The translations under genes were made by a program, and so were the position numbers. Below are positions 3,477-19,564 of a stretch of 19,564 nt of DNA, piece after piece (position 1 is the stretch's first letter; each line of letters begins with the position of its first letter). Source of the stretch: a virus (lineage: Duplodnaviria > Heunggongvirae > Uroviricota > Caudoviricetes); IMG/VR virus record IMGVR_UViG_2874920711_000010; one strand, given 5' to 3'. The notes under the pieces were generated by a model. The model saw only the letters and a list, made by a program, of their open reading frames with translations. It made no database searches and had not been told where the DNA came from.

Positions 3477-3516
3477 AGCCCGATAAGCTTCCTCCTGTAC
3501 TTATCGGGCTTTTTTT
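3477..3516 (+). terminator. Intrinsic terminator-like hairpin with a T6 run on the plus strand and no annotated plus-strand gene upstream
   Basis: Stem AGCCCGATAAG / CTTATCGGGCT with a 13-nt loop, followed by TTTTTT (3511-3516). Confidence 0.45.
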
Positions 3517-3522
3517 GGGTAC

Positions 3523-3547
3523 AAAAAGCCGGATTTTCTCCGGCCTG
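3523..3547 (-). terminator. Intrinsic terminator downstream of the ssb remnant; hairpin nearly identical to the one at 1261-1276
   Basis: AAAAA then GCCGGATTTTCTCCGGC (3528-3544); on the minus strand a hairpin plus U-run directly after the ssb stop at 3553. Confidence 0.6.
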
Positions 3548-3552
3548 TGCGT

Positions 3553-3896
3553 TCAGAACGGAATATCATCACCGTAGGGGTCATCGTCTCCCGCTGGTGG
3601 CTGATTACCCTGTGTGCCTGTGGTTTTGCGTCTGTTCCCGCCAGGGCGTGCCGCTCGGGCACTGATTACGCTGTCGGCAATAACCTGATAACCCTGCCGC
3701 GTTTCCCCGTTCTGTCCGGTCCACTGGCTGACCTGCATCGTGCCGGATACGCTGGCAACGTCGCCTGTCCGTCCTGTGCCTGGCTGCATGGCAGCGATAC
3801 CGCCATACGCGCCAGCGTCATCGGTGTGCCCTTGCTGGTCTGTTTTACCTGCGGGTCGTCCACCAACCGTCCGTAAGCTGCTATCTGTGCTGTCAT
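3553..3896 (-). pseudogene. ssb: Single-stranded DNA-binding protein (SSB) gene remnant, frame-disrupted or internally deleted
   Basis: SSB-like N-terminus (MTAQIAAYGRLVDDPQVKQ...) with RBS GGAGAGG in one frame from 3896; SSB-like OB-fold end (SQWTGQNGETRQGYQVIADSV) and acidic tail DDDPYGDDIPF in another frame ending at 3553. The middle of the OB fold appears missing. Confidence 0.5.
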
Positions 3897-4001
3897 GATT
3901 CCACCTCTCCGGTTTTAACGTAAGCGCCCCATCAGCGACGTCTTGTGAAAATTGTCCTGTCTGGCAACAATCGCGCCCATCTATATTGATGGACACGAAC
4001 G

Positions 4002-4676
4002 ATGAATTCCCAGACAACAAAAGATATTCCCTGCTTCCGTTCTTATTTGCCTGATGCCCTGCGTTTAAGATTTGAAGATAAACTGACCATCCGGGCCATC
4101 GCTCAGCGTCTGGGTCTCAGTCATTCCACAATACATACGCTTTTTCAGCGATTTCTTGCATCCGGTATCGCATGGCCATTGCCCGATTCAGTTTCATTCG
4201 CTCAACTTGACGCCATCCTTTATGCCAACAGAAAGAAGGAATTAACAGAGCCTCAAATCAGAGAAGGCTCATGGCGAAAAGAACGGCGAACCAGCTATAG
4301 CCGTGAATTTAAGGTCCGTCTGGCTAAGCAGGCGTTACAGCCTGGGGCTGTTGTTGCCCGGATCGCCAGAGAACACGATATCAATGATAACCTGCTGTTT
4401 AAATGGAAAAGCCAGTACGAGGACGGCTTACTGAGCGATGATGACATACAGGAATGCATGCCTGTCCCGGTGGCACTGACTGATACGCCGGAGCCGACCA
4501 GACCAGTTACAAATCCCTTCTGGCGTAACAAGCATGATGAGCGCCCTGAGGGGGCTCCCGGAAACGTCCCACGGTGCGAGCTGCATCTTAAATCAGGTGT
4601 GGTAAAACTGTTTGACCCTCTCACTCCGGAACTGTTACGGGCGCTAATCCGCGAAATGAAAGGGGGTATCCGATGA
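4002..4676 (+). CDS. IS66-family accessory protein TnpA (HTH), 224 aa
   Basis: First ORF inside the IS66 left end, overlapping tnpB by 4 nt. Confidence 0.7.
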   Translation: MNSQTTKDIPCFRSYLPDALRLRFEDKLTIRAIAQRLGLSHSTIHTLFQRFLASGIAWPLPDSVSFAQLDAILYANRKKELTEPQIREGSWRKERRTSYSREFKVRLAKQALQPGAVVARIAREHDINDNLLFKWKSQYEDGLLSDDDIQECMPVPVALTDTPEPTRPVTNPFWRNKHDERPEGAPGNVPRCELHLKSGVVKLFDPLTPELLRALIREMKGGIR

Positions 4677-5020
4677 TAACGCTGCCGACCGGTACCAGAA
4701 TCTGGATCATCGCTGGCATCACAGATATGCGTTGTGGCTTCAATGGCCTGGCTTCGAAGGTGCAGAACACGCTGAAAGATGACCCGTTCTCCGGGCATAT
4801 CTTCGTCTTCCGGGGCCGCAGTGGCAAAATGGTGAAAATACTGTGGGCCGATCGTGACGGGTTATGCCTGTTCGCCAAACGCCTGGAACGGGGCCGCTTC
4901 GTCTGGCCGGTGACCCGGGAAGGGAAAGTGCACCTGACGCCAGCTCAGTTATCCATGCTACTGGAGGGGATCGCGTGGCAACATCCCAAACGGACAGAAC
5001 GGCCTGGCATCCGGATATAA
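4673..5020 (+). CDS. IS66-family TnpB (Orf2), 115 aa
   Basis: Characteristic small IS66 second ORF (MITLPTG...IWIIAGITDMRCGFNGL), translationally coupled to tnpA. Confidence 0.85.
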   Translation: MITLPTGTRIWIIAGITDMRCGFNGLASKVQNTLKDDPFSGHIFVFRGRSGKMVKILWADRDGLCLFAKRLERGRFVWPVTREGKVHLTPAQLSMLLEGIAWQHPKRTERPGIRI

Positions 5021-5039
5021 CCCGTGATAAAACAAGGGA

Positions 5040-6595
5040 ATGAACAATGAACTCCCCGATGATATTGAGCTGCTTAAAGCCATGTTGCGTAAGCAACAGA
5101 GTCGGCTTCGACAGTATGCCTGTCAGGTCGCGGGCTATGAGCAGGAAATTGAACGGCTGAAAGCGCAACTCGACAGGTTGCGTCGTATGTTGTTCGGCCA
5201 GAGTTCAGAGAAAAAGCGTCATAAGCTTGAAAATCAGATCCGACAGGCAGAAAAACGACTGTCGGAACTGGAAAACCGGCTGAACACAGCCAGAAATCTT
5301 CTGGAAGATGCATCGTCAGTCACAGATTCACCTGACACCAGTCCCCGTCAGAAAACCCGATCGCCAGTAAGCCTGAATCCCCGGGAGACACATCGCCTTC
5401 TGCCTGCTGAAACCAGTTGCCCGGCCTGTGGAGGTGTTCTGAAAGAAATGGGGGAAACAATCTCAGAGCAACTGGATATCATTAATACCGCCTTTAAAGT
5501 TATCGAAACCATACGTCCCAAACTGGCCTGTAGCCGGTGTGATGTCATCGTTCAGGCACCACTTCCCCTAAACCGATCGAACGCGGTTATGCCAGTGCAG
5601 GGTTACTTGCACGGATCCTGGTCAGCAAATATATGGAACATATCCCTTTATATCGCCAGTCAGAAATATACGCGCGACAGGGCGTGGAGCTGAGCCGTAA
5701 TACCATGGTGCGCTGGGTATCAGAAATGGCAGACAAACTCCGTCCTCTGTATATAGCGCTGAATGACTATGTTCTGGAGGCAGGAAAGGTGCACGCAGAT
5801 GACACTCCGGTGAAAGTACTGGCCCCGGGGAACGGAAAGACGAAAACGGGTCGTCTGTGGGTATACGTCAGGGATGATCGTAATGCGGGTTCATCCCTGC
5901 CGGCAGCCGTCTGGTTCGCGTATTCGGCAGATCGCAAAGGAGAACATCCGCAGCTCCACCTGGCAAAGTATCAGGGCGTACTGCAGGCTGATGCCTATGC
6001 AGGTTATAACGTACTGTACGAAACGGGCCGGGTGAAGGAAGCCGGGTGCCTGGCCCACGCCCGCCGAAAAATCCATGACGAGGATGTGCGCCGTCCGACA
6101 GAAATGACTCAGGAAGCGCTCAGACGGATAGCAGAGTTATACGACATAGAAGCGGAGATACGTGGCAGTCCGGCAGAGGAACGGCTTGCAGTCAGAAAAG
6201 CCAGAAGCGTCCAGTTGATGCAGTCGTTGTACGACTGGATACAGTTGCAGAGGAAAACGCTGTCGAAACATGCGGAGATGGCGAAGGCGTTCGACTATAT
6301 CCTGAATCACTGGAATGCGCTGAACGAGTTCTGTCGTGACGGCTGGGTGGAAATAGACAACAACATCGGTGAAAACGCGTTACGATCGGTGGCGGTTGGA
6401 AGAAAAAATTATCTCTTTTTCGGCTCAGACAAGGGAGGAGAAAGTGCGGCGATCATCTACAGTCTGCTGGTCACCTGCAAACAGAACGAAGTGGAGCCGG
6501 AGGACTGGTTGCGCGAAGTGATCGAGAAGCTCAATGACTGGCCGTCGAACCAAGTGCATGAACTGCTGCCCTGGAACTTCTCGTCTGTAAAATAA
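5040..6595 (+). CDS. IS66-family transposase TnpC, split by an apparent frameshift near 5565-5568 (C4 run)
   Basis: ORFs 5040-5693 and 5633-6595 together make a TnpC of about 517 aa; the conserved [29 protein letters not shown] block is only in frame if one base is restored in the C-run. Confidence 0.75.
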
Positions 6596-6640
6596 TCCTT
6601 ACGCTACGTACTTCTCGGGACGCTTACGTATATTAAGTTA

Positions 6641-6799
6641 GGTAGACAGCTTTTTTTACTGTCTACCCACTATCTACCCTCTCTACCTGATTTTACCTGA
6701 ATCAGACAGGGAGGTAGACACGGGGTAGATAGTGGATAAAAGCACTCTACCCCGCTGAAAGCCGCGCCATTACTGGCATGAGGGCCAGCAAGGTAGACA
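6641..6799. repeat. Iteron cluster: octamer GGTAGACA/TGTCTACC at 6641-6648, 6660-6667, 6713-6720, 6792-6799, plus degenerate copies at 6671-6678 and 6724-6731
   Basis: Exact 8-mers in both orientations within about 160 bp of the 367-bp spacer between the two IS66 copies. Confidence 0.6.
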
Positions 6800-6847
6800 A
6801 GGGGAGGCACAACTCAAAACTTTTTAAACGAGGGGGTAAAAATAAAC

Positions 6848-6994
6848 ATGCACACTTCAGGAAAATTTAATAAATCACTCAAAAAACGCAGAGACAGAAC
6901 AGAACCGAAATATCGCGCGTTAGACATGACAGAGCACGCTTTAAAGGTGGCAATCAGAACGATAGACCGCCACGCGGGGGAAGGATACGCGAAG
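6848..6994 (+). CDS. 5-prime fragment (49 codons) of a small gene truncated at the IS66 copy 2 end
   Basis: ORF 6848-7090 starts after a GAGGGGG RBS; from 6995 onward its frame is IS66 sequence. Confidence 0.25.
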
Positions 6995-7025
6995 GTAAGC
7001 GCCCGAGAAGTACGTAGCGTAAGGA

Positions 7026-8580
7026 TTATTTTACAGACGAGAAGTTCCAGGGCAGCAGTTCATGCACTTGGTTCGACGGCCAGTCATTGAGCTTCTCGAT
7101 CACTTCGCGCAACCAGTCCTCCGGCTCCACTTCGTTCTGTTTGCAGGTGACCAGCAGACTGTAGATGATCGCCGCACTTTCTCCTCCCTTGTCTGAGCCG
7201 AAAAAGAGATAATTTTTTCTTCCAACCGCCACCGATCGTAACGCGTTTTCACCGATGTTGTTGTCTATTTCCACCCAGCCGTCACGACAGAACTCGTTCA
7301 GCGCATTCCAGTGATTCAGGATATAGTCGAACGCCTTCGCCATCTCCGCATGTTTCGACAGCGTTTTCCTCTGCAACTGTATCCAGTCGTACAACGACTG
7401 CATCAACTGGACGCTTCTGGCTTTTCTGACTGCAAGCCGTTCCTCTGCCGGACTGCCACGTATCTCCGCTTCTATGTCGTATAACTCTGCTATCCGTCTG
7501 AGCGCTTCCTGAGTCATTTCTGTCGGACGGCGCACATCCTCGTCATGGATTTTTCGGCGGGCGTGGGCCAGGCACCCGGCTTCCTTCACCCGGCCCGTTT
7601 CGTACAGTACGTTATAACCTGCATAGGCATCAGCCTGCAGTACGCCCTGATACTTTGCCAGGTGGAGCTGCGGATGTTCTCCTTTGCGATCTGCCGAATA
7701 CGCGAACCAGACGGCTGCCGGCAGGGATGAACCCGCATTACGATCATCCCTGACGTATACCCACAGACGACCCGTTTTCGTCTTTCCGTTCCCGGGGCCA
7801 GTACTTTCACCGGAGTGTCATCTGCGTGCACCTTTCCTGCCTCCAGAACATAGTCATTCAGCGCTATATACAGAGGACGGAGTTTGTCTGCCATTTCTGA
7901 TACCCAGCGCACCATGGTATTACGGCTCAGCTCCACGCCCTGTCGCGCGTATATTTCTGACTGGCGATATAAAGGGATATGTTCCATATATTTGCTGACC
8001 AGGATCCGTGCAAGTAACCCTGCACTGGCATAACCGCGTTCGATCGGTTTAGGGGAAGTGGTGCCTGAACGATGACATCACACCGGCTACAGGCCAGTTT
8101 GGGACGTATGGTTTCGATAACTTTAAAGGCGGTATTAATGATATCCAGTTGCTCTGAGATTGTTTCCCCCATTTCTTTCAGAACACCTCCACAGGCCGGG
8201 CAACTGGTTTCAGCAGGCAGAAGGCGATGTGTCTCCCGGGGATTCAGGCTTACTGGCGATCGGGTTTTCTGACGGGGACTGGTGTCAGGTGAATCTGTGA
8301 CTGACGATGCATCTTCCAGAAGATTTCTGGCTGTGTTCAGCCGGTTTTCCAGTTCCGACAGTCGTTTTTCTGCCTGTCGGATCTGATTTTCAAGCTTATG
8401 ACGCTTTTTCTCTGAACTCTGGCCGAACAACATACGACGCAACCTGTCGAGTTGCGCTTTCAGCCGTTCAATTTCCTGCTCATAGCCCGCGACCTGACAG
8501 GCATACTGTCGAAGCCGACTCTGTTGCTTACGCAACATGGCTTTAAGCAGCTCAATATCATCGGGGAGTTCATTGTTCAT
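7026..8580 (-). pseudogene. IS66-family transposase TnpC, copy 2, with the shared frameshift plus a second 1-bp deletion (7801-7803)
   Basis: Three ORF pieces (7927-8580, 7586-7987, 7026-7589); copy 2 reads GGCCCCGGG where copy 1 reads GGCCCCGGGG. Confidence 0.7.
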
Positions 8581-8599
8581 TCCCTTGTTTTATCACGGG

Positions 8600-8947
8600 T
8601 TATATCCGGATGCCAGGCCGTTCTGTCCGTTTGGGATGTTGCCACGCGATCCCCTCCAGTAGCATGGATAACTGAGCTGGCGTCAGGTGCACTTTCCCTT
8701 CCCGGGTCACCGGCCAGACGAAGCGGCCCCGTTCCAGGCGTTTGGCGAACAGGCATAACCCGTCACGATCGGCCCACAGTATTTTCACCATTTTGCCACT
8801 GCGGCCCCGGAAGACGAAGATATGCCCGGAGAACGGGTCATCTTTCAGCGTGTTCTGCACCTTCGAAGCCAGGCCATTGAAGCCACAACGCATATCTGTG
8901 ATGCCAGCGATGATCCAGATTCTGGTACCGGTCGGCAGCGTTATCAT
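8600..8947 (-). CDS. IS66-family TnpB, copy 2
   Basis: Protein identical to 4673-5020. Confidence 0.85.
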   Translation of the reverse strand: MITLPTGTRIWIIAGITDMRCGFNGLASKVQNTLKDDPFSGHIFVFRGRSGKMVKILWADRDGLCLFAKRLERGRFVWPVTREGKVHLTPAQLSMLLEGIAWQHPKRTERPGIRI

Positions 8948-9618
8948 CGGATACCCCCTTTCATTTCGCGGATTAGCGCCCGTAACAGTTCCGGAGTGAG
9001 AGGGTCAAACAGTTTTACCACACCTGATTTAAGATGCAGCTCGCACCGTGGGACGTTTCCGGGAGCCCCCTCAGGGCGCTCATCATGCTTGTTACGCCAG
9101 AAGGGATTTGTAACTGGTCTGGTCGGCTCCGGCGTATCAGTCAGTGCCACCGGGACAGGCATGCATTCCTGTATGTCATCATCGCTCAGTAAGCCGTCCT
9201 CGTACTGGCTTTTCCATTTAAACAGCAGGTTATCATTGATATCGTGTTCTCTGGCGATCCGGGCAACAACAGCCCCAGGCTGTAACGCCTGCTTAGCCAG
9301 ACGGACCTTAAATTCACGGCTATAGCTGGTTCGCCGTTCTTTTCGCCATGAGCCTTCTCTGATTTGAGGCTCTGTTAATTCCTTCTTTCTGTTGGCATAA
9401 AGGATGGCGTCAAGTTGAGCGAATGAAACTGAATCGGGCAATGGCCATGCGATACCGGATGCAAGAAATCGCTGAAAAAGCGTATGTATTGTGGAATGAC
9501 TGAGACCCAGACGCTGAGCGATGGCCCGGATGGTCAGTTTATCTTCAAATCTTAAACGCAGGGCATCAGGCAAATAAGAACGGAAGCAGGGAATATCTTT
9601 TGTTGTCTGGGAATTCAT
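8944..9618 (-). CDS. IS66-family TnpA, copy 2
   Basis: Protein identical to 4002-4676. Confidence 0.7.
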   Translation of the reverse strand: MNSQTTKDIPCFRSYLPDALRLRFEDKLTIRAIAQRLGLSHSTIHTLFQRFLASGIAWPLPDSVSFAQLDAILYANRKKELTEPQIREGSWRKERRTSYSREFKVRLAKQALQPGAVVARIAREHDINDNLLFKWKSQYEDGLLSDDDIQECMPVPVALTDTPEPTRPVTNPFWRNKHDERPEGAPGNVPRCELHLKSGVVKLFDPLTPELLRALIREMKGGIR

Positions 9619-9735
9619 CGTTCGTGTCCATCAATATAGATGGGCGCGATTGTTGCCAGACAGGACAATTTTCACAAGACGTCGCTGATGGGGCGCTTAC
9701 TAATATACTGAATTAAATGTATTTTCCTTTACTCA

Positions 9736-9766: not shown

Positions 9767-10999
9767 TTATAAAAACGCGTCGCACTCGTCTGTTGTTATT
9801 GCGTTAGTCTGCGTTACCCCCTTAACTTTCCGCGTAATATATTCATGTCCGTAAACTTTTGCGGCAGGCTTCATAGCCTTGCCAAAGTCATTTACGTTTA
9901 GCGGTTTGCTCCTGCCTGCGTATGCCATAAACGCCAGATAGACGCGGTAAAGGCTGTTCCTGGTCGTGTACTTCACTGAATCACCACCGCCACCCATCAT
10001 CAGGCCGCGCGCTTCCTCCAGAAAATTCAGGAACTGGCAAAACTCAATAACCGGATCCGTCTGTTGCTTTATTGCCAGTGCTTCATCACCGTCACGCTGT
10101 TCCAGTAGTAAAGCCCGTGCCTTCTCAGGGTCGGTAAAGTTCGCCAGCAATCGGCGGATAATAACGGGGATTTCAGCCGCAATCTTTTCCGGTAGCTCCC
10201 TGTCTTTTTCGGCCTCACTGACGATATTGTCGAAACGGAAAATCACGCGACGACGTGCCACACCTCCGGCCCGTTCGGTGAATATCATCGGGTTGTTGTC
10301 GGTCGCCAGCACCACCGCCCTGATTACCGCCGTGAAACGCTTTTCATATTTCGGGTTAATTTCCACGGGGTCGCCGCCCGTGATTTTCTTGATGCCCGTT
10401 CCTTCGCCTGTATATTTCGGCTGGTCAGCCAGGACGATAAGACGACTCCCGACAACCTGCGCACGTCCACCAGCATCATCAAGCGATGTCATTTCAGCGC
10501 TTACCGTGTTCTGTTTCCCTGCCAGAAGGCTGGCTATGTGTGTGAATGTACTTTTACCGCTCCCGCCGTCTCCGGTGGCCTCAATAAACATCTGCCAGTC
10601 GTACCGGTTCGCCATAATCATGTAAAGCGCGGCACATATGCGCATCATCTTGCGCGGGTCTTTTCCGGCTGCGTGATCAAGCCATTTATGAAAGTTTGGC
10701 GCGTTGTCGCGGATATTCTCCCCTGGTGCTGGTGGCGTGTACTCAATGCCGTTGTGCGTGGTGATCCAGTTCTCCGGCGTGTGCGGGGAAAATTCCCCCG
10801 TTTTCAGGTTAAGCACACCATTAGTGAACGGTAGCAAATCACTGGACGGCTCGCCCATCGGGTCAGCAGTAACTTTTAACGCTTCAACGGCGTTATTAAT
10901 TGCCCGCTTGCTGAATGTGGCCCGTGTTCTGAATAAACCGCCACCATTTCGCGGCTCAGTTCCATTGTGCTGACCGGACACCATATCCCGCCGCGCCAT
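9767..10999 (-). CDS. Replicase/helicase of the P4 alpha C-terminal type (D5_N-like region plus P-loop NTPase), up to 410 aa
   Basis: LPFTNGVLNLKTGEF motif and Walker A ATGDGGSGKST; true start may be the internal Met at 10858 (after the upstream stop) or the gene may be fused to 10876-11520 by a frameshift. Confidence 0.8.
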   Translation of the reverse strand: MARRDMVSGQHNGTEPRNGGGLFRTRATFSKRAINNAVEALKVTADPMGEPSSDLLPFTNGVLNLKTGEFSPHTPENWITTHNGIEYTPPAPGENIRDNAPNFHKWLDHAAGKDPRKMMRICAALYMIMANRYDWQMFIEATGDGGSGKSTFTHIASLLAGKQNTVSAEMTSLDDAGGRAQVVGSRLIVLADQPKYTGEGTGIKKITGGDPVEINPKYEKRFTAVIRAVVLATDNNPMIFTERAGGVARRRVIFRFDNIVSEAEKDRELPEKIAAEIPVIIRRLLANFTDPEKARALLLEQRDGDEALAIKQQTDPVIEFCQFLNFLEEARGLMMGGGGDSVKYTTRNSLYRVYLAFMAYAGRSKPLNVNDFGKAMKPAAKVYGHEYITRKVKGVTQTNAITTDECDAFL

Positions 11000-11520
11000 A
11001 CGTGAACGATTTCACTTTCCGGATGCACACAAACGCCATCAAATCGACCAGCAAGCATCTGTGCGCGCTCACTGTCTGCCATCTGCGAAAGTTGCGCCTT
11101 TTGCTTTACCGGAAGCTCAATGACCAGACCATCAGAAAGATTCTGGCGTTCACGGGCCAGATATTCGCGCCAGTTCTGCACCTCCTGGCCGTGCATACCC
11201 TCAAGATAAAAATTTGCATCTTGTACACCTGCCGCCGCCAGCTTCTGACCAATCGCCTTGATCATTACAGGCTCAAGATGTCCGGCTCTGTATATGCGTG
11301 CTGATTTTCTGCCATCCGGCACAATTTGCAGATTATCCAGTTCGGATAGCTGCTGCTCTCCAAGCCACACAGGAGGCTCATTATCTCCGGCTGTACGCGC
11401 GTCATGTTCCTGCCACTGTTTCGCGTGTGCCCAGGCATCACTACCCGCAAAGATAATTACCTCTGTGTCTTTGTGTTTTATTCCGCGTGGCTGTTTTTTT
11501 ACGTTCGGTGCCAGTTTCAT
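10876..11520 (-). CDS. Primase-like or replication-associated protein, 214 aa, upstream partner of the replicase
   Basis: ORF overlaps the replicase ORF by 124 nt in another frame; domain not recognised with certainty. Confidence 0.5.
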   Translation of the reverse strand: MKLAPNVKKQPRGIKHKDTEVIIFAGSDAWAHAKQWQEHDARTAGDNEPPVWLGEQQLSELDNLQIVPDGRKSARIYRAGHLEPVMIKAIGQKLAAAGVQDANFYLEGMHGQEVQNWREYLARERQNLSDGLVIELPVKQKAQLSQMADSERAQMLAGRFDGVCVHPESEIVHVWRGGIWCPVSTMELSREMVAVYSEHGPHSASGQLITPLKR

Positions 11521-11816: not shown

Positions 11817-12079
11817 ATGAGCAGAAAAACCCAACGTTACTCTAAAGAGTTCAAAGCCGAAGCTGTCAGAACGGTTCTTGAAAATCAACTTTCGATCAGT
11901 GAAGGCGCTTCCCGATTATCCCTTCCTGAAGGCACTTTAGGACAATGGGTTACCGCCGCCAGAAAAGGACTCGGTACTCCTGGTTCCCGCACGGTGGCTG
12001 AACTGGAATCTGAAATTCTGCAACTGCGTAAGGCGTTAAATGAAGCTCGCCTTGAGCGAGATATATTAAAAAAAGCAAC
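11817..12079 (+). CDS. IS3-family OrfA (HTH), interrupted near its 3-prime end by IS30; the last codons resume at 13302
   Basis: Removing IS30 and one AC copy restores ...DILKKATAYFAQESLKNTR and a continuous -1 frame into OrfB. Confidence 0.7.
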
Positions 12080-13299
12080 TGTAGATTCAATTGGTCAACG
12101 CAACAGTTATGTGAAAACATGGGGTTGCGGAGGTTTTTTGAATGAGACGAACATTTACAGCAGAGGAAAAAGCCTCTGTTTTTGAACTATGGAAGAACGG
12201 AACAGGCTTCAGTGAAATAGCGAATATCCTGGGTTCAAAACCCGGAACGATCTTCACTATGTTAAGGGATACTGGCGGCATAAAACCCCATGAGCGTAAG
12301 CGGGCTGTAGCTCACCTGACACTGTCTGAGCGCGAGGAGATACGAGCTGGTTTGTCAGCCAAAATGAGCATTCGTGCGATAGCTACTGCGCTGAATCGCA
12401 GTCCTTCGACGATCTCACGTGAAGTTCAGCGTAATCGGGCAGACGCTATTACAAAGCTGTTGATGCTAATAACCGAGCCAACAGAATGGCGAAAAGGCCA
12501 AAACCGTGCTTACTGGATCAAAATTTACCATTGCGAAAGCTTGTTCTGGAAAAGCTGGAGATGAAATGGTCTCCAGAGCAAATATCAGGATGGTTAAGGC
12601 GAACAAAACCACGTCAAAAAACGCTGCGAATATCACCTGAGACAATTTATAAAACGCTGTACTTTCGTAGCCGTGAAGCGCTACACCACCTGAATATACA
12701 GCATCTGCGACGGTCGCATAGCCTTCGCCATGGCAGGCGTCATACCCGCAAAGGCGAAAGAGGTACGATTAACATAGTGAACGGAACACCAATTCACGAA
12801 CGTTCCCGAAATATCGATAACAGACGCTCTCTGGGGCATTGGGAGGGCGATTTAGTCTCAGGTACAAAAAACTCTCATATAGCCACACTTGTAGACCGAA
12901 AATCACGTTATACGATCATCCTTAGACTCAGGGGCAAAGATTCTGTCTCAGTAAATCAGGCTCTTACCGACAAATTCCTGAGTTTACCGTCAGAACTCAG
13001 AAAATCACTGACATGGGACAGAGGAATGGAACTGGCCAGACATCTAGAATTTACTGTCAGCACCGGCGTTAAAGTTTACTTCTGCGATCCTCAGAGTCCT
13101 TGGCAGCGGGGAACAAATGAGAACACAAATGGGCTAATTCGGCAGTACTTTCCTAAAAAGACATGTCTTGCCCAATATACTCAACATGAACTAGATCTGG
13201 TTGCTGCTCAGCTAAACAACAGACCGAGAAAGACACTGAAGTTCAAAACACCGAAAGAGATAATTGAAAGGGGTGTTGCATTGACAGATTGAATCTACA
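12080..13299 (+). mobile_element. IS30 (1220 bp here, canonical 1221 bp) nested inside the IS3-family element, with 2-bp target duplication AC
   Basis: Left end TGTAGATTCAATTGGTCAACGCAACAG at 12080, right end ...CAGATTGAATCTACA at 13299, AC at 12078-12079 and 13300-13301. Confidence 0.85.
12142..13292 (+). CDS. insI: IS30 transposase, split by a 1-bp deletion in a G-run at about 12436-12439
   Basis: ORFs 12142-12564 and 12486-13292 together give the roughly 383-aa IS30 transposase; the window reads CGGGCAGACGC where an intact frame requires one more G. Confidence 0.8.
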
Positions 13300-13376
13300 A
13301 CAGCGTATTTTGCACAGGAGTCGCTGAAAAATACGCGTTAATCGAACAATGGCGACAACAATTTCCCATTGAAGCG

Positions 13377-14195
13377 ATGTGTCAGGTATTTGGTGTATCC
13401 AGGAGCGGTTATTACAACTGGGTACAGCATGAACCCTCAGACAGAAAACAAAGTGATGAGCGGCTAAAACTGGAGATTAAGGTGGCCCATATCCGCACTC
13501 GCGAAACATATGGAACCCGGCGGCTCCAGACGGAGCTGGCAGAGAATGGCATCATCGTTGGACGTGACCGACTGGCACGTCTTCGTAAGGAGCTAAGGCT
13601 ACGCTGTAAGCAGAAACGCAAGTTCAGAGCGACTACGAACCCGAACCACAATCTGCCAGTTGCGCCAAATCTGCTGAACCAGACGTTCGCTCCTACAGCA
13701 CCAAATCAGGTCTGGGTGGCGGACCTGACGTATGTTGCCACACAGGAGGGATGGTTGTACCTCGCTGGCATCAAAGATGTTTATACGTGCGAAATTGTCG
13801 GCTACGCCATGGGAGAGCGCATGACAAAAGAGCTGACAGGTAAAGCCCTGTTTATGGCGCTCAGGAGCCAGCGCCCACCTGCCGGGCTAATCCACCACTC
13901 TGATCGAGGTTCACAGTACTGCGCATACGATTACCGGGTCATACAGGAGCAGTTTGGTCTGAAAACATCAATGTCGCGTAAAGGTAACAGTTACGACAAC
14001 GCTCCGATGGAAAGCTTCTGGGGAACGCTGAAAAATGAGAGCCTGAGCCACTATCGTTTTAATAACCGGGATGAAGCCATCTCAGTAATACGGGAATACA
14101 TTGAGATTTTCTACAATCGTCAGCGTCGTCACTCTCGTCTGGGGAATATCTCCCCGGCAGCCTTCAGGGAAAAATATCATCAGATGGCTGCTTAA
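13377..14195 (+). CDS. IS3-family OrfB (DDE transposase catalytic domain)
   Basis: DDE-type motifs (WVADLTY, HHSDRGSQY, YDNAPMESFW); in the intact element it is expressed as an OrfAB fusion by -1 frameshifting, the -1 frame being open from about 13302. Confidence 0.8.
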   Translation: MCQVFGVSRSGYYNWVQHEPSDRKQSDERLKLEIKVAHIRTRETYGTRRLQTELAENGIIVGRDRLARLRKELRLRCKQKRKFRATTNPNHNLPVAPNLLNQTFAPTAPNQVWVADLTYVATQEGWLYLAGIKDVYTCEIVGYAMGERMTKELTGKALFMALRSQRPPAGLIHHSDRGSQYCAYDYRVIQEQFGLKTSMSRKGNSYDNAPMESFWGTLKNESLSHYRFNNRDEAISVIREYIEIFYNRQRRHSRLGNISPAAFREKYHQMAA

Positions 14196-14310
14196 AAAAA
14201 GAACAAATGGTAGTGTCCGCTATTGCCAGTACACCTCATATCCCCGCGCATGAATTTAGTGCGAGTTTTGCCGCTGGCAGTTAAGCCAGGATATTTAAGT
14301 TTCATTATTT

Positions 14311-14544
14311 TTATTCTCCGGTGTGGGGCGCTTTATACTGGTCGTGTAATGTCTCTATTTCCTGCAACTCATTTATTACAGGCTCAAGAAGCGTTATTAA
14401 TGCCGTGACAATCCTTGATTTCTGTTTATCACGCTCATTATCGCCAAATGTTTCCAGACACATTTGCAATATTTCCAACATATTTTCACTGTGAGAAAGT
14501 GCAAGAAATGCGCGGTCTGTTATTTCAATGTAAATATCACGCAT
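14311..14544 (-). CDS. Small hypothetical protein, 77 aa, in an AT-rich pocket between the IS3 and IS110 elements
   Basis: ORF only; no clear RBS, and its upstream region is IS110-family sequence. Confidence 0.3.
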   Translation of the reverse strand: MRDIYIEITDRAFLALSHSENMLEILQMCLETFGDNERDKQKSRIVTALITLLEPVINELQEIETLHDQYKAPHTGE

Positions 14545-14549
14545 AACCC

Positions 14550-16010
14550 CGTTACTTTATTCGTACCCCTTATAATGGGGTGTTAGCCAGCCAGACCCGG
14601 CATGATTACTGCCCCCAGTCGTCCATGATCCGGGGGTGATGTCACCGGGTCTGGTGGGGCGCTGGTAACCGCTAATAGGGTCAGGTCAGGCACTTTTGCC
14701 GGGACCGTCTGTAACGTGGATGCCGGTACCTGCTCCCGTGGTTATCTGGTTAACCCATATACAAGGGAGACAGAATGACCGAATCCAGCGATTACGAATC
14801 CGTCCAGGTCTTTATCGGCGTTGATGTCGGTAAAGATACGCATCACGCTGTTGCCATTAATCGTTCAGGTAAACGCCTGTTCGATAAAGCATTACCCAAC
14901 GACGAAAACAAACTCAGGTCGCTAATATCTGACCTGAAACAACATGGTCAGATACTGCTGGTTGTTGATCAGCCAGCTACCATCGGTGCGTTACCTGTCG
15001 CCGTTGCCCGCTCAGAAGGAGTCCTTGTCGGATATCTCCCTGGACTGGCCATGCACCGCATAGCCGACTTACACGCCGGTGAAGCTAAAACTGATGCTCG
15101 TGACGCTGCCATCATTGCCGAAGCTGCCCGTACCCTGCCTCACGCGCTACGCACGCTGAAACTGGCTGACGAGCAAATCGCCGAACTCTCCATGCTCTGC
15201 GGCTTCGATGATGATCTTGCCGCACAGACAACGCAGGCCAGCAACCGTATCCGCGGCCTTCTGACCCAGATACATCCGGCACTGGAGCGCGTTCTCGGTC
15301 CGAGACTTGAGCACCCGGCGGTACTCGATCTTCTCCAGCGATATCCCTCACCAGAAAAACTCGCTTCGCTGGGTGAGAAGAAGCTGGCAGCCCAGCTCTG
15401 CAAACTTGCGCCTCGTCTGGGTAAACGCCTTGCAGCAGACATAGCTCAGGCACTGGCCGAACAAACCGTCGTCGTTCCCGGCACGAATGCCGCTGCCGTA
15501 GTACTGCCACGTCTGGCACTCCAACTCATCACGCTGCGTAAGCAAAGAGACGAGGTGGCGCTTGAGGTAGAACAGCGAGTTCTTGCTCACCCTCTTTACC
15601 CGGTCCTGACCAGTATGCCCGGAGTCGGTGTCAGGACCGCAGCCAGACTCCTCACCGAGGTCGCCTGCCGCGCCTTCGCCTCTGCCGCACATCTCGCTGC
15701 TTATGCTGGCCTTGCGCCGGTAACTCGGCGATCCGGCTCGTCAATACGCGGTGAGCATCCCTCGCGACGGGGTAATAAAGCTCTCAAACGGGCGTTGTTC
15801 CTGTCGGCCTTCGCCGCGCTCAGGGATCCGCTCTCCAGGGCTTACTACACCCGCAAAATGAGTCAGGGAAAACGACACAATCAGGCGCTTATCGCCCTGG
15901 CGAGACGACGCTGCGACGTTCTGTTCGCCATGATGCGCGACGGGACTTTTTATACCCCGCAGGGGTCATAACATGCTTGACAACTTAATAGGGCACCCCC
16001 ATTTTCACAA
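14550..16010 (+). mobile_element. IS110-family insertion sequence (boundaries approximate)
   Basis: Single 398-aa transposase with a GC-rich leader of about 220 bp; sharp base-composition change near 14545. Confidence 0.6.
14775..15971 (+). CDS. IS110-family transposase, 398 aa
   Basis: N-terminal FIGVDVGKDTHHAV RuvC-like motif; RBS AAGGGAGA upstream. Confidence 0.85.
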   Translation: MTESSDYESVQVFIGVDVGKDTHHAVAINRSGKRLFDKALPNDENKLRSLISDLKQHGQILLVVDQPATIGALPVAVARSEGVLVGYLPGLAMHRIADLHAGEAKTDARDAAIIAEAARTLPHALRTLKLADEQIAELSMLCGFDDDLAAQTTQASNRIRGLLTQIHPALERVLGPRLEHPAVLDLLQRYPSPEKLASLGEKKLAAQLCKLAPRLGKRLAADIAQALAEQTVVVPGTNAAAVVLPRLALQLITLRKQRDEVALEVEQRVLAHPLYPVLTSMPGVGVRTAARLLTEVACRAFASAAHLAAYAGLAPVTRRSGSSIRGEHPSRRGNKALKRALFLSAFAALRDPLSRAYYTRKMSQGKRHNQALIALARRRCDVLFAMMRDGTFYTPQGS

Positions 16011-16366: not shown

Positions 16367-16583
16367 GTGAAAGGCTCCTTTGCTTGATGTAAGGAGTCTC
16401 GCCAGCACGCTGTCAAACATGGTGGCGGGACGTAACAGGGTTGACAGACTGGCAGCAAAGAAACCAGCGAGCGCAAAGGCTCCCCCGTTACGCCCCGCCA
16501 TAATGCGGGTATGGGTAGGTTTACGGACACAAAAAAACCGCATATCGGAATGTAAGCGGCTGTCCGCTTTGCTATTCAGGCTG

Positions 16584-16841
16584 TCAAACCCGGTCGCCAT
16601 GTGGGCGACGGGGAAGAATACAGCCCCACGGTAATTTTTTGCAAGTTGTTTTTACGCATGGCCAACCCCCCTGACGAATACGGGCCGCGAATACAGCAAC
16701 ACAACCGGACGGGCAATGGTTACGCGCTTCGCGTTCAGTCCAGGCGGTGACGTGGATGATTTGGGACTCTGACGCACCAAAGGCGATAAAGCGCCAGAGA
16801 AAGGCGGTTTGAGAATGTACAAGGGTAGGGGTAGTAGCCAT
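16584..16841 (-). CDS. Ash-like protein paralog 2 (about 85 aa)
   Basis: Start at 16841 preceded by AAGGAGG with 8-nt spacing; it is the C-terminal part of a 460-aa ORF whose upstream 375 codons look non-coding. Confidence 0.45.
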   Translation of the reverse strand: MATTPTLVHSQTAFLWRFIAFGASESQIIHVTAWTEREARNHCPSGCVAVFAARIRQGGWPCVKTTCKKLPWGCILPRRPHGDRV

Positions 16842-17006
16842 GCCGGCAGCCTCCTTGATTGATGGAATGTAACCACCGCCGGAGGTCCTAAGCTCGCTGG
16901 CGGTGGACTGTACAGGGTTAGGACTACTGGCAATCAAGGGAACCAGCCTACCCGAAGGTAGCCCCATACAGCCCACCATTGTATAGGTGTGCGTGTGCGT
17001 CGATAC

Positions 17007-17029
17007 AAAAAAAGACGCGTGCGGCGTCT
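17007..17029 (-). terminator. Intrinsic terminator (minus strand)
   Basis: AAAAAAA followed by AGACGC-GTGCG-GCGTCT; on the minus strand a hairpin plus U7. Confidence 0.55.
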
Positions 17030-17289
17030 GTATCGCCTCGATTGTCAGCGGGGTCCTAATCCCGGCACCCGTTTTATAAGGTGCACGCGAATCATAGCCT
17101 TGGCTGGCAGTGGCGATCAACTGGTTTTTCATACCCGCTTTATTCAGGTTGTGCGAGTCCCGCCCTTGCAGGTGTGTGGTATGATTTAACATAGCTATCT
17201 CGATACTGTTGCTATCGTTGGTGGTTAGACGCCCTGCATGTGTTGCGAGCACTGCGGGGCGTTGCTTAATTTGAGTGACAAAACTCAAA

Positions 17290-17322
17290 CTGTGCGCACA
17301 GATTAAAATCATGTGTGCGCAC
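17290..17322. promoter_or_regulatory. Two perfect 10-bp palindromes TGTGCGCACA (17290-17299, 17313-17322) plus a half-site at 17361-17367
   Basis: Read from the sequence, upstream of the small plus-strand gene at 17398; the same GTGCGCAC core occurs at 31-38. Confidence 0.5.
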
Positions 17323-17397
17323 ATGTCAATACTTAACATCTCATTTTTTTTGCTGTATTGTGTGCGCCCATAAAGTCCATTTAAGTGAGGTGCATCA

Positions 17398-17595
17398 ATG
17401 TCTAGCGGTAACACAAACAACAAATCAGCAAAGAAAAATATTCGATTCCCACATGAGCTTATAGATGGGGTTGATGCCAGCGTTGAACAAGAAAAATTAA
17501 CTAATCCTAGTGCTAATTTTTCCGCATGGGTCTTAGATGCCTGTGGACGCAAATTAAAATATGAACAGCGCCGGAAGGCCAAAGAATCAGAATAA
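17398..17595 (+). CDS. Small putative DNA-binding protein, 65 aa (ribbon-helix-helix-like)
   Basis: ORF downstream of the palindromic operator; basic N-terminus followed by IRFPHELIDGVDASVEQEKL. Confidence 0.45.
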   Translation: MSSGNTNNKSAKKNIRFPHELIDGVDASVEQEKLTNPSANFSAWVLDACGRKLKYEQRRKAKESE

Positions 17596-17652
17596 TCACT
17601 ATCAGCGCCGTGGCGTGAGGTGCTACGGCGCATTGCTTTACAGGTACACACA

Positions 17653-17832
17653 ATGACCAACAAAGAATCAACCAATACACCATCGCAAAAAACGAACAGA
17701 GAGCACGAAAATATGGCGCTCGAGCATGAATCAGAAAGATTCGCACCATGTGCTTTTGCCCTTGAGCAATTCCTTAAAGAGTACAGGGAAACGCGCTCAT
17801 TGCAGGTATGGCAACGAACTGAACCAGACTGA
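17653..17832 (+). CDS. Small hypothetical protein, 59 aa
   Basis: ORF 17620-17832 trimmed to the ATG at 17653; followed by the bidirectional terminator. Confidence 0.3.
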   Translation: MTNKESTNTPSQKTNREHENMALEHESERFAPCAFALEQFLKEYRETRSLQVWQRTEPD

Positions 17833-17924
17833 TTGCATTGCCCACCAGCCTGATAGCGTCTATCATCCCCGTGCTTATGTTTGGGATCACATACACATAA
17901 GGCGCAGCGGGTTAATTGTTCAGA

Positions 17925-17954
17925 AAGGCGGCTCCATATCGGGGCCGCTTTTTT
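17925..17954. terminator. Bidirectional intrinsic terminator between the convergent small genes and alpA
   Basis: GGCGGCTCC-ATATC-GGGGCCGC followed by TTTTTT on the plus strand, A/T-rich on the other side. Confidence 0.55.
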
Positions 17955-17980: not shown

Positions 17981-18187
17981 TTAAGCAGCCGTTCCGCGTG
18001 CTTCCTGTTCGCGTTCTTTCTGCCAGGCCAACACATCATCCTCATACCATCCGCGACGGCGTAAACCAACGCGAAAACCCTGCGGAAATTCTCCGGCGTT
18101 GATCATGCTTTGCAGCGTGCTGTCTGCCTTGATGTGGATAATTTTTTTTACTTCCTGGCGAAAGATAATTTTTCTGATTGCTTCCAT
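17981..18187 (-). CDS. alpA: AlpA-family phage transcriptional regulator, 68 aa
   Basis: Size and motif pattern (RQEVxK...STLxxMIxAGEFPxGxxxGxRxxGWxExDVxAW) typical of AlpA in P4-like/PICI islands; position next to the integrase. Confidence 0.75.
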   Translation of the reverse strand: MEAIRKIIFRQEVKKIIHIKADSTLQSMINAGEFPQGFRVGLRRRGWYEDDVLAWQKEREQEARGTAA

Positions 18188-18661: not shown

Positions 18662-19564
18662 CTACACGGCTCGGATACCCCTTTTACCACTGGCGAGGGT
18701 TACGCCCGTCGCCGCAGCCTCGACAAATTCGCCCCACCAGCGCATCAGCACGATGCGTTTTTCTATGTAGTTGCTCCGGTTGTATGCCCGTCTAACTTCG
18801 TTGGTGTCGACGTGGGCAAGTGCCGCCTCTATTACGTCCGGCTCGAATCCTTCCTCGTTCGCTGCTGTGCTGAATATGGCGCGTAATCCATGAGACACCA
18901 GCACGCCAGCGAATCCCATACGCCGCAATGCTGCGTTAGCGGTCTGGCTGTTCATCGGCTGCTGTGGGTCTTTCAGACTTGGGAAAACGTAATTGCGGTG
19001 GTGGCTGATTGGTTTCATGGCCTCCAGCATCGCCATAGCCTGACCGGAAAGCGGGATAACGTGATCCCTGCGCATCTTCATGCGTCCGGCAGGTATCGTC
19101 CATTGCTTCGCGTCCAGGTTGATTTCATCCCACCGCGTTGATGACGCTTCGGCGGGACGGGTTACGGTCAGTAACTGCCATTCAATCAGTAATCTGGTCT
19201 GCCGTTCTGTTGCCGATACTGATAAAGCCTGCATAAGCTCCGGCAGCTGTTCGGGGCGGATTGTTGGCATATGTTTTTTTACAGGTGAGGGAAACGCCTT
19301 ACGCACATTCATAGCCGGATTGGCATCAATCAGCCCACTGTTGGCGGCGTAATCCATTACCTCATTAACGCGCTGTAAAACCCGCTTGAGTGTTTCCAGG
19401 TTGCCGCGCTCCTTGATGGGTGTAAGCACCTCAACGAACCTTCGGGCGGTGAGGGTATCTATTGGCGTGTTGCCGATGAACGGGAATACATATTTATCCA
19501 GCGAACGCCAGATATCTTTAATCGTGTTGGGGCCAGATTCTGGCTGATTTTCACCTGGTACCAT
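18662..19564 (-). CDS. int: P4-type tyrosine integrase, C-terminal 300 aa; the gene probably continues beyond the window edge
   Basis: Catalytic-domain motifs HGLRA and RAYNRSNY near the C-terminus; similar to P4/CP4-57-type integrases but lacking the N-terminal arm-binding domain. Confidence 0.85.
   Translation of the reverse strand: MVPGENQPESGPNTIKDIWRSLDKYVFPFIGNTPIDTLTARRFVEVLTPIKERGNLETLKRVLQRVNEVMDYAANSGLIDANPAMNVRKAFPSPVKKHMPTIRPEQLPELMQALSVSATERQTRLLIEWQLLTVTRPAEASSTRWDEINLDAKQWTIPAGRMKMRRDHVIPLSGQAMAMLEAMKPISHHRNYVFPSLKDPQQPMNSQTANAALRRMGFAGVLVSHGLRAIFSTAANEEGFEPDVIEAALAHVDTNEVRRAYNRSNYIEKRIVLMRWWGEFVEAAATGVTLASGKRGIRAV

Follow-up and report, generated by a model that had tools for sequence, protein, structure and literature searches.

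We analysed the control region of an island carried on a 19,564-nucleotide stretch of viral DNA (Caudoviricetes; IMG/VR record IMGVR_UViG_2874920711_000010), the whole of which is called the window here. At this locus, three short palindromic sites, designated O1, O2 and O3, lie on two predicted divergent promoters, P_L and P_R, beside an open reading frame (ORF) of 65 amino acids (17398-17595, plus strand). The ORF encodes a protein of the YlcI/YnfO family (DUF3950) that is ribbon-helix-helix (RHH)-like, and it is the candidate repressor for O1-O3. The island is of the type of EcCICFT073, the prototype phage-inducible chromosomal island (PICI) of Gram-negative bacteria.

Three palindromic sites on two predicted divergent promoters

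The 10-bp palindrome TGTGCGCACA occurs exactly twice in the window, at 17291-17300 (O1) and 17314-17323 (O2), with 23 bp from start to start. A previous sequence-only reading had described twin identical 10-bp palindromes at this distance; the pair and its spacing hold, and the positions given for it were one base too low. O1 extends to a perfect 12-bp palindrome, CTGTGCGCACAG (17290-17301). O2 is GTGTGCGCACAT (17313-17324), with a perfect 10-bp core, and O3 is GTGTGCGCCCAT (17360-17371), whose core TGTGCGCCCA (17361-17370) is a 9/10 copy of TGTGCGCACA. The general form of the operator is a 12-bp GTG-N6-CAC. When the window was shuffled 500 times by dinucleotides, two identical 10-nt palindromes within 60 bp came up in 5 of the shuffled sequences.

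The same reading had noted that the GTGCGCAC core recurs at 31-38, at the far left of the window. It does recur there, but we attribute this to chance, since it is one extra copy of an 8-mer for which 0.5 are expected per window and its flanks differ (AGGTGCGCACCT). The match is contained in a perfect 12-bp palindrome, AGGTGCGCACCT at 29-40, whose ends are like the GGTG..CACC ends of operators throughout the family; it is 17 kb distant, falls within an ORF and is at chance frequency. A second candidate site beside O1, TTTGAGT-N6-ACTCAAA (17270-17289), was dropped because it is degenerate in a related locus, L001.

The -35 elements of the two predicted promoters stand back to back. P_L (17300-17329, minus strand) has a perfect -35 element, TTGACA, at 17329 to 17324 and a predicted start at about 17295. 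Its -10 element, read by eye, is either TTTAAT (17307 to 17302, 16-nt spacer) or TAATCT (17305 to 17300, 18-nt spacer). P_R, the predicted promoter of the 65-residue protein gene (17333-17361, plus strand), was called by a consensus scan, with TTAACA, a 17-nt spacer and TATTGT. O2 lies directly against the -35 of P_L and takes up the beginning of the spacer, O1 covers the edge of the -10 and the +1 of P_L in a register that is kept in related loci, and O3 starts at the last base of the P_R -10 and overlaps its -10/+1. The perfect sites therefore bracket P_L, and the imperfect site lies on P_R. P_L is supported by conservation of TTGAC at 90% or more in 34 loci and by a TA-rich -10 within the O1-O2 spacer; TATAGT, TATTGT or TATGGT directly precedes O3 in most loci. 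The palindromes had been read as operators ahead of the 65-residue protein gene. We found instead that the perfect pair is on the divergent P_L, in its spacer and at its +1, and that only O3 is on the promoter of that gene. The main target of the operators is therefore probably the leftward icd-primase operon.

Conserved layout and co-variation of operators and N-terminal arm

The comparison sample consisted of 46 loci from one-genome-per-species contigs of Enterobacterales and Orbales, including Serratia, Rahnella, Klebsiella, Pectobacterium, Xenorhabdus, Proteus, Morganella, Pantoea, Gilliamella, Orbus and other genera. The three-site layout was found across these loci, nearly all of which have GTG-N6-CAC 12-mers in a common register. 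O1 and O2 are 23 bp apart in nearly all of them, with O2 abutting GTCAA (the TTGAC of the -35), and O3 lies at +46 or +47 bp from O2 in most, on a TATAGT or TATTGT -10; in some loci the third site is weak or displaced. The operator cores themselves vary by locus, and include TGCGCA, TTTAAA, CAYAWA, TGTAGA, RACCC, TCCGYA, GGATTCC and GTGGCCCA. Over 8 core positions, O1 and O2 showed 0.90 differences within a locus compared with 3.61 between loci, a result reached by none of 10000 permutations. Loci of the TTTAAAC class (L012, L017, L022, L028 and L038) contained one more copy of the operator, some 24 bp downstream of O2, as well as a fourth site farther off; a locus is thus not always limited to three sites.

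We compared the operator core with different parts of the locus using Mantel tests. Core distance correlated with distance in the 12-residue N-terminal arm that precedes an invariant RFPH motif (r = 0.60); it was less correlated with the remainder of the protein (0.33) and with the DNA alongside (0.21). Particular arms went with particular cores: AKKN with TGCGCA, xYKG with TTTAAA, TTKG with CAYAWA and KRKD with TCCGYA.

Two mosaic relatives gave evidence that is independent of the Mantel test. Between the window and L001, the operators are identical and the YlcI-like proteins 97% identical, with AlpA only 28% identical. Between the window and L002, AlpA is 100% identical, the YlcI-like proteins are 37% identical, and the operators are unrelated (CTGGATTCCAG, GTGGAATCCAC and CTGGATTCCAG in L002). 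As determined by blastn, the window and L002 are 91-93% identical on both sides of a segment, 17233-17565, in which no homology was detectable. Against Escherichia coli CFT073, the homology gap narrowed to 17266-17565; the flanks against L002 and CFT073 are 82-93% identical. Because this gap lies between homologous flanks, the swapped unit consists of the operators, both promoters and codons 1-56 of the 65-residue protein gene, with no further coding sequence. We designated 17266-17565 as the minimal exchangeable specificity cassette.

Some genomes carry two such elements that differ in both core and N-terminal arm, namely Serratia sp. Ag1 (L004 and L007) and Xenorhabdus kozodoii (L029 and L032). 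Co-resident elements of differing class are consistent with what is expected of non-cross-reacting immunity groups.

Across the loci compared, repeated cognate sites thus lie over core promoter elements and co-vary with the regulator. The sequence-only reading had proposed an autoregulated immunity switch made of the operator array and the 65-residue RHH-like protein, and the conserved layout, the co-variation and the cassette swap, which are comparative evidence, strongly support this proposal.

Family of the 65-residue protein and its likeness to RHH repressors

The 65-residue protein matched NCBIfam NF041551 (YlcI_YnfO_N) with 57.9 bits (cutoff 30), Pfam PF13132 (DUF3950) with 26.8 bits (cutoff 25) and phrog_949 with an E value of 3e-27, and it has 115 homologue clusters across Enterobacterales. 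DUF3950 was the only family that Pfam gave, and no RHH family of Pfam appeared even at E values up to 10. A sequence-based profile search of the PDB gave no relative, the sole match being a spurious ribosomal protein, and a Foldseek search of the AlphaFold2 model against the PDB gave zero matches. Alignment by hhalign to an approximate Arc sequence was weak (18 columns, 6% probability). We therefore describe the protein as RHH-like and do not assign it to an established RHH family.

The likeness to P22 Arc and Mnt and to other RHH repressors (CopG, MetJ and RHH antitoxins) lies in several features. The protein is small, in the range of about 50-80 residues. The motif NIRFPHELI in its putative N-terminal strand resembles NLRWPREVL of Arc, and two helices may follow. 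The palindromic operators lie over promoters in the control region of a mobile element, as for Arc/Mnt-type repressors. The N-terminal arm of Arc-type RHH repressors helps operator recognition. The 12-bp dyad sites are compatible with an intertwined RHH dimer whose paired strands would read a symmetric operator. The system differs from Arc/Mnt-type repressors in that the 65-residue protein matches no RHH family significantly by sequence or by profile, and in that three sites here stand astride back-to-back divergent promoters, with specificity classes swapped as cassettes.

A YlcI-like ORF, unannotated and 58% identical over 53 residues, was also observed in Pasteurella phage Pmp7, a satellite-like record of 10.7 kb (L050, 4853-5011). 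The label "transcriptional repressor" in that record was rejected as a label of this ORF, because it belongs to an overlapping eta-like coding sequence on the opposite strand.

The window as an EcCICFT073-type island

In E. coli relatives, the gene order is int, alpA, a small hypothetical gene, YlcI/YnfO, a divergent Icd-like gene, DUF4222, primase, SSB and PerC. The CFT073 sequence, which contains EcCICFT073, has the same order, and the window is collinear with it. In the window, we found int (18662-19564), alpA, a split P4-family primase (9767-11520), DUF4222, capsid E and decoration D, in the gene order of a Gram-negative PICI. EcCICFT073 also has the triple site: GGTGTGGCCCAC occurs twice, the second copy abutting GTCAAG, and a third site lies on the -10 of the YlcI/YnfO gene. 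The operator class is GTGGCCCAC in CFT073, GGATTCC in L002 and TGCGCA in the window.

Insertion sequence (IS) elements were observed in 3500-9700 and 11817-15971: two copies of the IS66 family in inverted orientation, an IS3-family element that contains an IS30-family transposase, and an IS110-family element. They separate the switch from the primase, which is itself split, and suggest that this copy of the island is defective. None of the P4 capsid-hijacking genes sid, delta and psu is annotated in L001, L002 or CFT073, nor was any seen in the part of the window ORFs that was scanned; capsid E and D genes are present instead. The earlier comparison with P4-like elements is therefore corrected: capsid E and D, DUF4222, the split P4-family primase and the IS insertions identify the window as an IS-invaded EcCICFT073-type PICI and not P4 proper.

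The Rfam int-alpA RNA motif (RF02996) was observed between int and alpA in some relatives (L012, 5827-5892; L005, 6021-6088); in the window, no match was found at the gathering score.

A P4-type RNA layer downstream of P_L

The stretch 17040-17290 had been thought to be free of genes and a possible place for a small RNA. It is not free of genes, since its minus strand contains an isrK-like RNA, the promoter-like site of this RNA, the start of a 202-residue ORF (ATG at 17192) and a conserved structured leader. Small RNA of the expected kind is predicted, namely P4-type IsrK/seqA and C4/CI by Rfam, all on the minus strand, but only the left edge of the stretch is small RNA, and C4 falls outside it. 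The covariance-model scan for P4-like immunity RNAs was positive. The IsrK/P4 seqA-like RNA (17008-17084, minus strand; RF01394) scored 64 bits against a threshold of 50; its loop, AUUAGGAC, is a C4 target, and its end is formed by an intrinsic terminator (17029 to 17013 plus a U-run). A promoter-like site, P_isrK (17091-17120, minus strand; TTGATC, 18-nt spacer, TATGAT), has its predicted start at isrK position 1. The C4/P4 CI-like antisense RNA of this unit (16896-16983, minus strand; RF01695) scored 78.6 bits against a threshold of 45, and contains the recognition stretch GUCCUAA. This stretch is complementary to UUAGGAC in the isrK loop (17064-17052) and at 16896-16884, where a second, seqB-like C4 target (CGAGCUUAGGACC, minus strand) lies upstream of a Shine-Dalgarno sequence (AAGGAGG, 16856 to 16850) and an ATG at 16841.

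We observed that two tandem IsrK/C4-type units of differing specificity are present, each followed by an Icd-like domain; L001 shares the duplication, with another specificity in its first unit. The second unit (16418-16621, minus strand) comprises a c4-a1b1/isrK-like target (16621 to 16531) with the loop UUUGACAG and a C4 RNA (16505 to 16418) with CUGUCAA, which would pair with UUGACAG. Its C4 scored 74.8 bits, above the same threshold, and its target 38.1 bits for c4-a1b1 and 35.4 bits for isrK, both under threshold in a permissive scan. In L001, the C4 loop and both targets are changed together, to GUGAGAA and UUCUCAC.

The isrK and C4 RNAs of the first unit lie in a 202-residue P4 eta-like ORF (16584-17192, minus strand; Pfam Phage_ASH; phrog_29966, E value 2.7e-100), whose reading frame runs unbroken through both and which has an Icd-like domain at its end. 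When the DNA coding for these two RNAs is translated, the product is matched by Phage_ASH and by several PHROGs that bear the label "transcriptional repressor". Since Phage_ASH-type families largely describe an eta-like ORF over RNA genes, the label "repressor" probably reflects the role of the RNA.

Between O1 and the ATG at 17192, the predicted P_L transcript has a structured 5' leader (17195-17261, minus strand). It consists of stem-loop SL1 (17261 to 17230), UCUAACCACCAA (17229 to 17218), stem-loop SL2 (17217 to 17201) and a Shine-Dalgarno-like site, the two stem-loops being parted by a near-invariant single-stranded UCUAACCA(C)CAA. In an alignment of 32 loci (RNAalifold), 13 of 15 pairs were kept through double changes, and Rfam gave no family match for the 17195-17261 leader. 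The UCUAACCA(C)CAA element is loosely boxA-like, and a role in antitermination, stability or translation control is possible.

Previous reports showed that IsrK and C4 are structural homologues of P4 seqA and CI RNA (PMC4825925, PMC3632133). In P4 eta, an internal constitutive promoter, CI and seqA lie inside the gene, and translation from an upstream regulated promoter suppresses termination (PMC10111431). That report already gave C4/isrK matches in Gram-negative PICIs, and the RNA layer is accordingly not new. In a scan of 20 related loci, isrK/C4 was present in L001 alone; the RNA layer is thus optional, and the protein-operator layer is general.

Neighbouring genes

The small genes had been described as converging on alpA, and this is borne out: the 65- and 59-residue ORFs on the plus strand face alpA (18187 to 17981, minus strand) across a terminator hairpin. 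The 59-residue ORF (17653-17832, plus strand; phrog_21027) would be co-transcribed with the 65-residue protein gene, and L002 and CFT073 each have a homologue of it annotated as a hypothetical gene. Between these two ORFs lies a GC-rich hairpin with a 12-bp stem (17605-17631), which was flagged as terminator-like, has a poor T-run, and may be an attenuator or processing site. The terminator hairpin between the convergent units (17922-17954) has a strong T-run in the plus direction and a weaker one towards alpA. The alpA-like gene (17981-18187, minus strand) encodes a helix-turn-helix regulator/excisionase (phrog_66/2790, excisionase and regulator) that is 100% identical to the annotated helix-turn-helix regulator of L002; its score for Pfam Phage_AlpA was 17.6 bits, under the cutoff.

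Discussion

We consider it likely that this region is a PICI switch, in which the 65-residue protein acts as an RHH-type dimeric repressor on O1-O3, silencing P_L and regulating its own synthesis, with specificity in the arm and the core and a P4-type RNA layer nested downstream. In the quiescent island, RHH-like dimers made from P_R would sit on O1 and O2 and occlude P_L, as we infer from the geometry and the co-variation. From P_L, the eta/icd-like gene would be transcribed, together in intact relatives with the DUF4222-primase-SSB replication operon. Through binding at O3, the weaker site, over the -10/+1 of P_R, the repressor would limit its own synthesis (negative autoregulation), and specificity in the variable operator core and the N-terminal arm would create exchangeable immunity classes. 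In the RNA layer, the internal promoter would yield the IsrK/seqA-like RNA, ending at its own terminator, and the C4/CI RNA, which would check residual transcription or translation. C4 would pair with the two UUAGGAC targets, as in P4 and P1, and stop read-through or translation. Upon derepression, the longer P_L mRNA would include the start codon at 17192, and translation across isrK/C4 is expected, from what is described for P4 eta, to override the RNA block, so that transcripts could extend into the icd-primase operon. As alpA is transcribed towards the repressor cassette, it might, speculatively, act through transcription that crosses the terminator on its weak side, either as read-through or as interference.

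Several points weigh against this model of repression. The Mantel test ignores shared ancestry. P_L was not called by the consensus promoter scan, owing to the -10 rules of the scan. AlpA is the activator required for induction of EcCICFT073, and it is induced by the helper (PMC6092414); the repressor may therefore be one part of the control. Finally, the downstream operon is cut by IS elements, so that the switch may be a relic in this island, although the switch itself is intact in the window.

Other explanations of the palindromes were weighed against the same evidence. The 65-residue protein and the 59-residue ORF may form a type II toxin-antitoxin-like or addiction pair, in which the palindromes mainly autoregulate the pair and the leftward effect is incidental. 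We regard this as unlikely, because the perfect sites are on the divergent promoter and the weakest site alone is on the promoter of the pair, the 59-residue ORF has no toxin family match, and a terminator-like hairpin lies between the two genes. The N-terminal half of the 59-residue protein also does not track the operators, as L001 resembles L002 there and has the operators of the window. Binding of the palindromes by AlpA, or by another island or host factor, was considered as well, since AlpA is the only experimentally shown regulator of the EcCICFT073-type PICI family, where it activates island genes (PMC6092414), and the sites lie between alpA and the operon that it activates. However, the window and L002 have the same AlpA protein but unrelated operators, the window and L001 have the same operators but AlpA proteins of 28% identity, and the sole coding sequence in the swapped cassette is the N-terminal part of the 65-residue protein gene; at least 8 operator cores across taxa argue against a host factor. 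A binder other than the 65-residue protein is thus very unlikely. AlpA and the 59-residue protein were rejected as the specific binders on the operator, AlpA and 59-residue comparisons of L001 and L002.

A hairpin at 17325 to 17310 on the minus strand, with a T-run, was flagged as terminator-like by the scan, and TGCGCA is a type II restriction site. The palindromes might accordingly be RNA or DNA hairpins (terminator or attenuator) or sites of recombination, replication or restriction, and not operators. We judge this to be extremely improbable. O2 is upstream of the predicted P_L start and so outside the P_L transcript, hairpins made by cores like TTTAAA or TCCGTA would be weak, and three dispersed copies of the same core, in a fixed promoter register and changing in concert over 46 loci, are unlike a terminator. 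A further explanation accepts that the protein binds the sites, and takes it mainly as an activator or bidirectional switch, for example of its own promoter from O2 like lambda CI at PRM, with the RNA layer as the real silencer. The O2 centre is about 50 bp upstream of the predicted P_R start, the P_R -35 is weak in many loci, and P4 relies on RNA immunity (PMC4825925, PMC3632133). However, one site in the spacer and one at +1 make a repressive geometry, and with isrK/C4 in one of the 20 loci scanned, most elements are without the RNA layer; there is little chance that activation is the main role.

The predicted repressor switch resembles several known systems. In lambda OR, a tripartite operator (OR1-OR2-OR3) also lies between divergent promoters, PR and PRM, in an exchangeable immunity region, and two strong sites shut the lytic/replication promoter while one weaker site autoregulates the repressor gene. 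It differs in that the protein here is RHH-like and not helix-turn-helix, the spacings are 23 and 47 bp, the 65-residue protein shows no sign of a LexA-type cleavage domain, and the partners of the switch are AlpA and the RNA layer and not Cro. By analogy, the proposed switch would work like lambda OR or P22 immI, built on an uncharacterised small protein family. In P4 (PLL, PLE, eta/kil, seqA, CI RNA and seqB) and in the c4-icd-ant system of P1/P7, the common features are isrK (seqA) and C4 (CI) in an eta-like ORF with an internal promoter, two complementary targets, an Icd-like domain downstream and the joint change of loop and target between relatives. The upstream promoter of P4, PLL, is under Vis and delta, and vis is directly upstream of eta. 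Here, in contrast, an oppositely oriented repressor cassette with three operators lies between alpA and the eta-like gene, and the RNA unit is duplicated with two specificities.

Stl of the Staphylococcus aureus pathogenicity islands and Rpr of Gram-positive PICIs share with this locus a divergent repressor gene at the boundary of the integration and replication modules of a satellite. Stl and Rpr are larger proteins, and no sequence relationship to them was found. At the present locus, the candidate repressor gene is directed away from int and towards alpA. Stl is known to be relieved by a protein of the helper phage. The window has the gene order of EcCICFT073 and other Gram-negative PICIs (int, alpA, YlcI/YnfO gene, divergent Icd-like gene, DUF4222, primase, and capsid E and D), and it has the three-site layout in common with EcCICFT073. 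The window copy differs from EcCICFT073 in its TGCGCA class, its extra isrK/C4 units and its IS3/IS30, IS110 and IS66 insertions.

Helper-phage-dependent induction and transfer have been shown for EcCICFT073, and those who described it stated that a global repressor in Gram-negative PICIs was unclear (PMC6092414). A bolder proposal, to which we give only a slim chance, is that the DUF3950 protein is this missing master repressor, with arm and core as interchangeable immunity classes, and that a YlcI/YnfO homologue of the helper derepresses the island through mixed dimers or competition for sites, coupling derepression to the helper. Lambda and many Shiga toxin phages were observed to carry a 41%-identical YlcI/YnfO homologue beside cos, on the strand opposite to late transcription (L051, 200-394; phage O276, lambda-like), and lambda and phi80 are helpers of EcCICFT073. 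No obvious triple operator was seen upstream of the lambda homologue. In the literature searched on DUF3950, YlcI, YnfO and PICI repressors, which comprised papers free of subscription, we found no paper assigning a repressor role, and no prior report of the protein-operator layer was found; RNA immunity alone is already known biology.

The RNA part matters less, as it is a further example of known P4-type immunity. The repressor-operator pairs would offer a candidate set of small orthogonal pairs, and the model is a first functional hypothesis for DUF3950 (YlcI/YnfO), which is also present in lambda and in cryptic prophages of E. coli K-12. As satellites, Gram-negative PICIs are widespread, and they mobilise virulence and defence genes; in the published model of their control, AlpA is the activator and no repressor is identified (PMC6092414). 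With its operators, promoters and classes defined, a conserved candidate for the repressor bears on how these islands may be kept silent, how co-resident islands may avoid cross-regulation, and what the helper may target.

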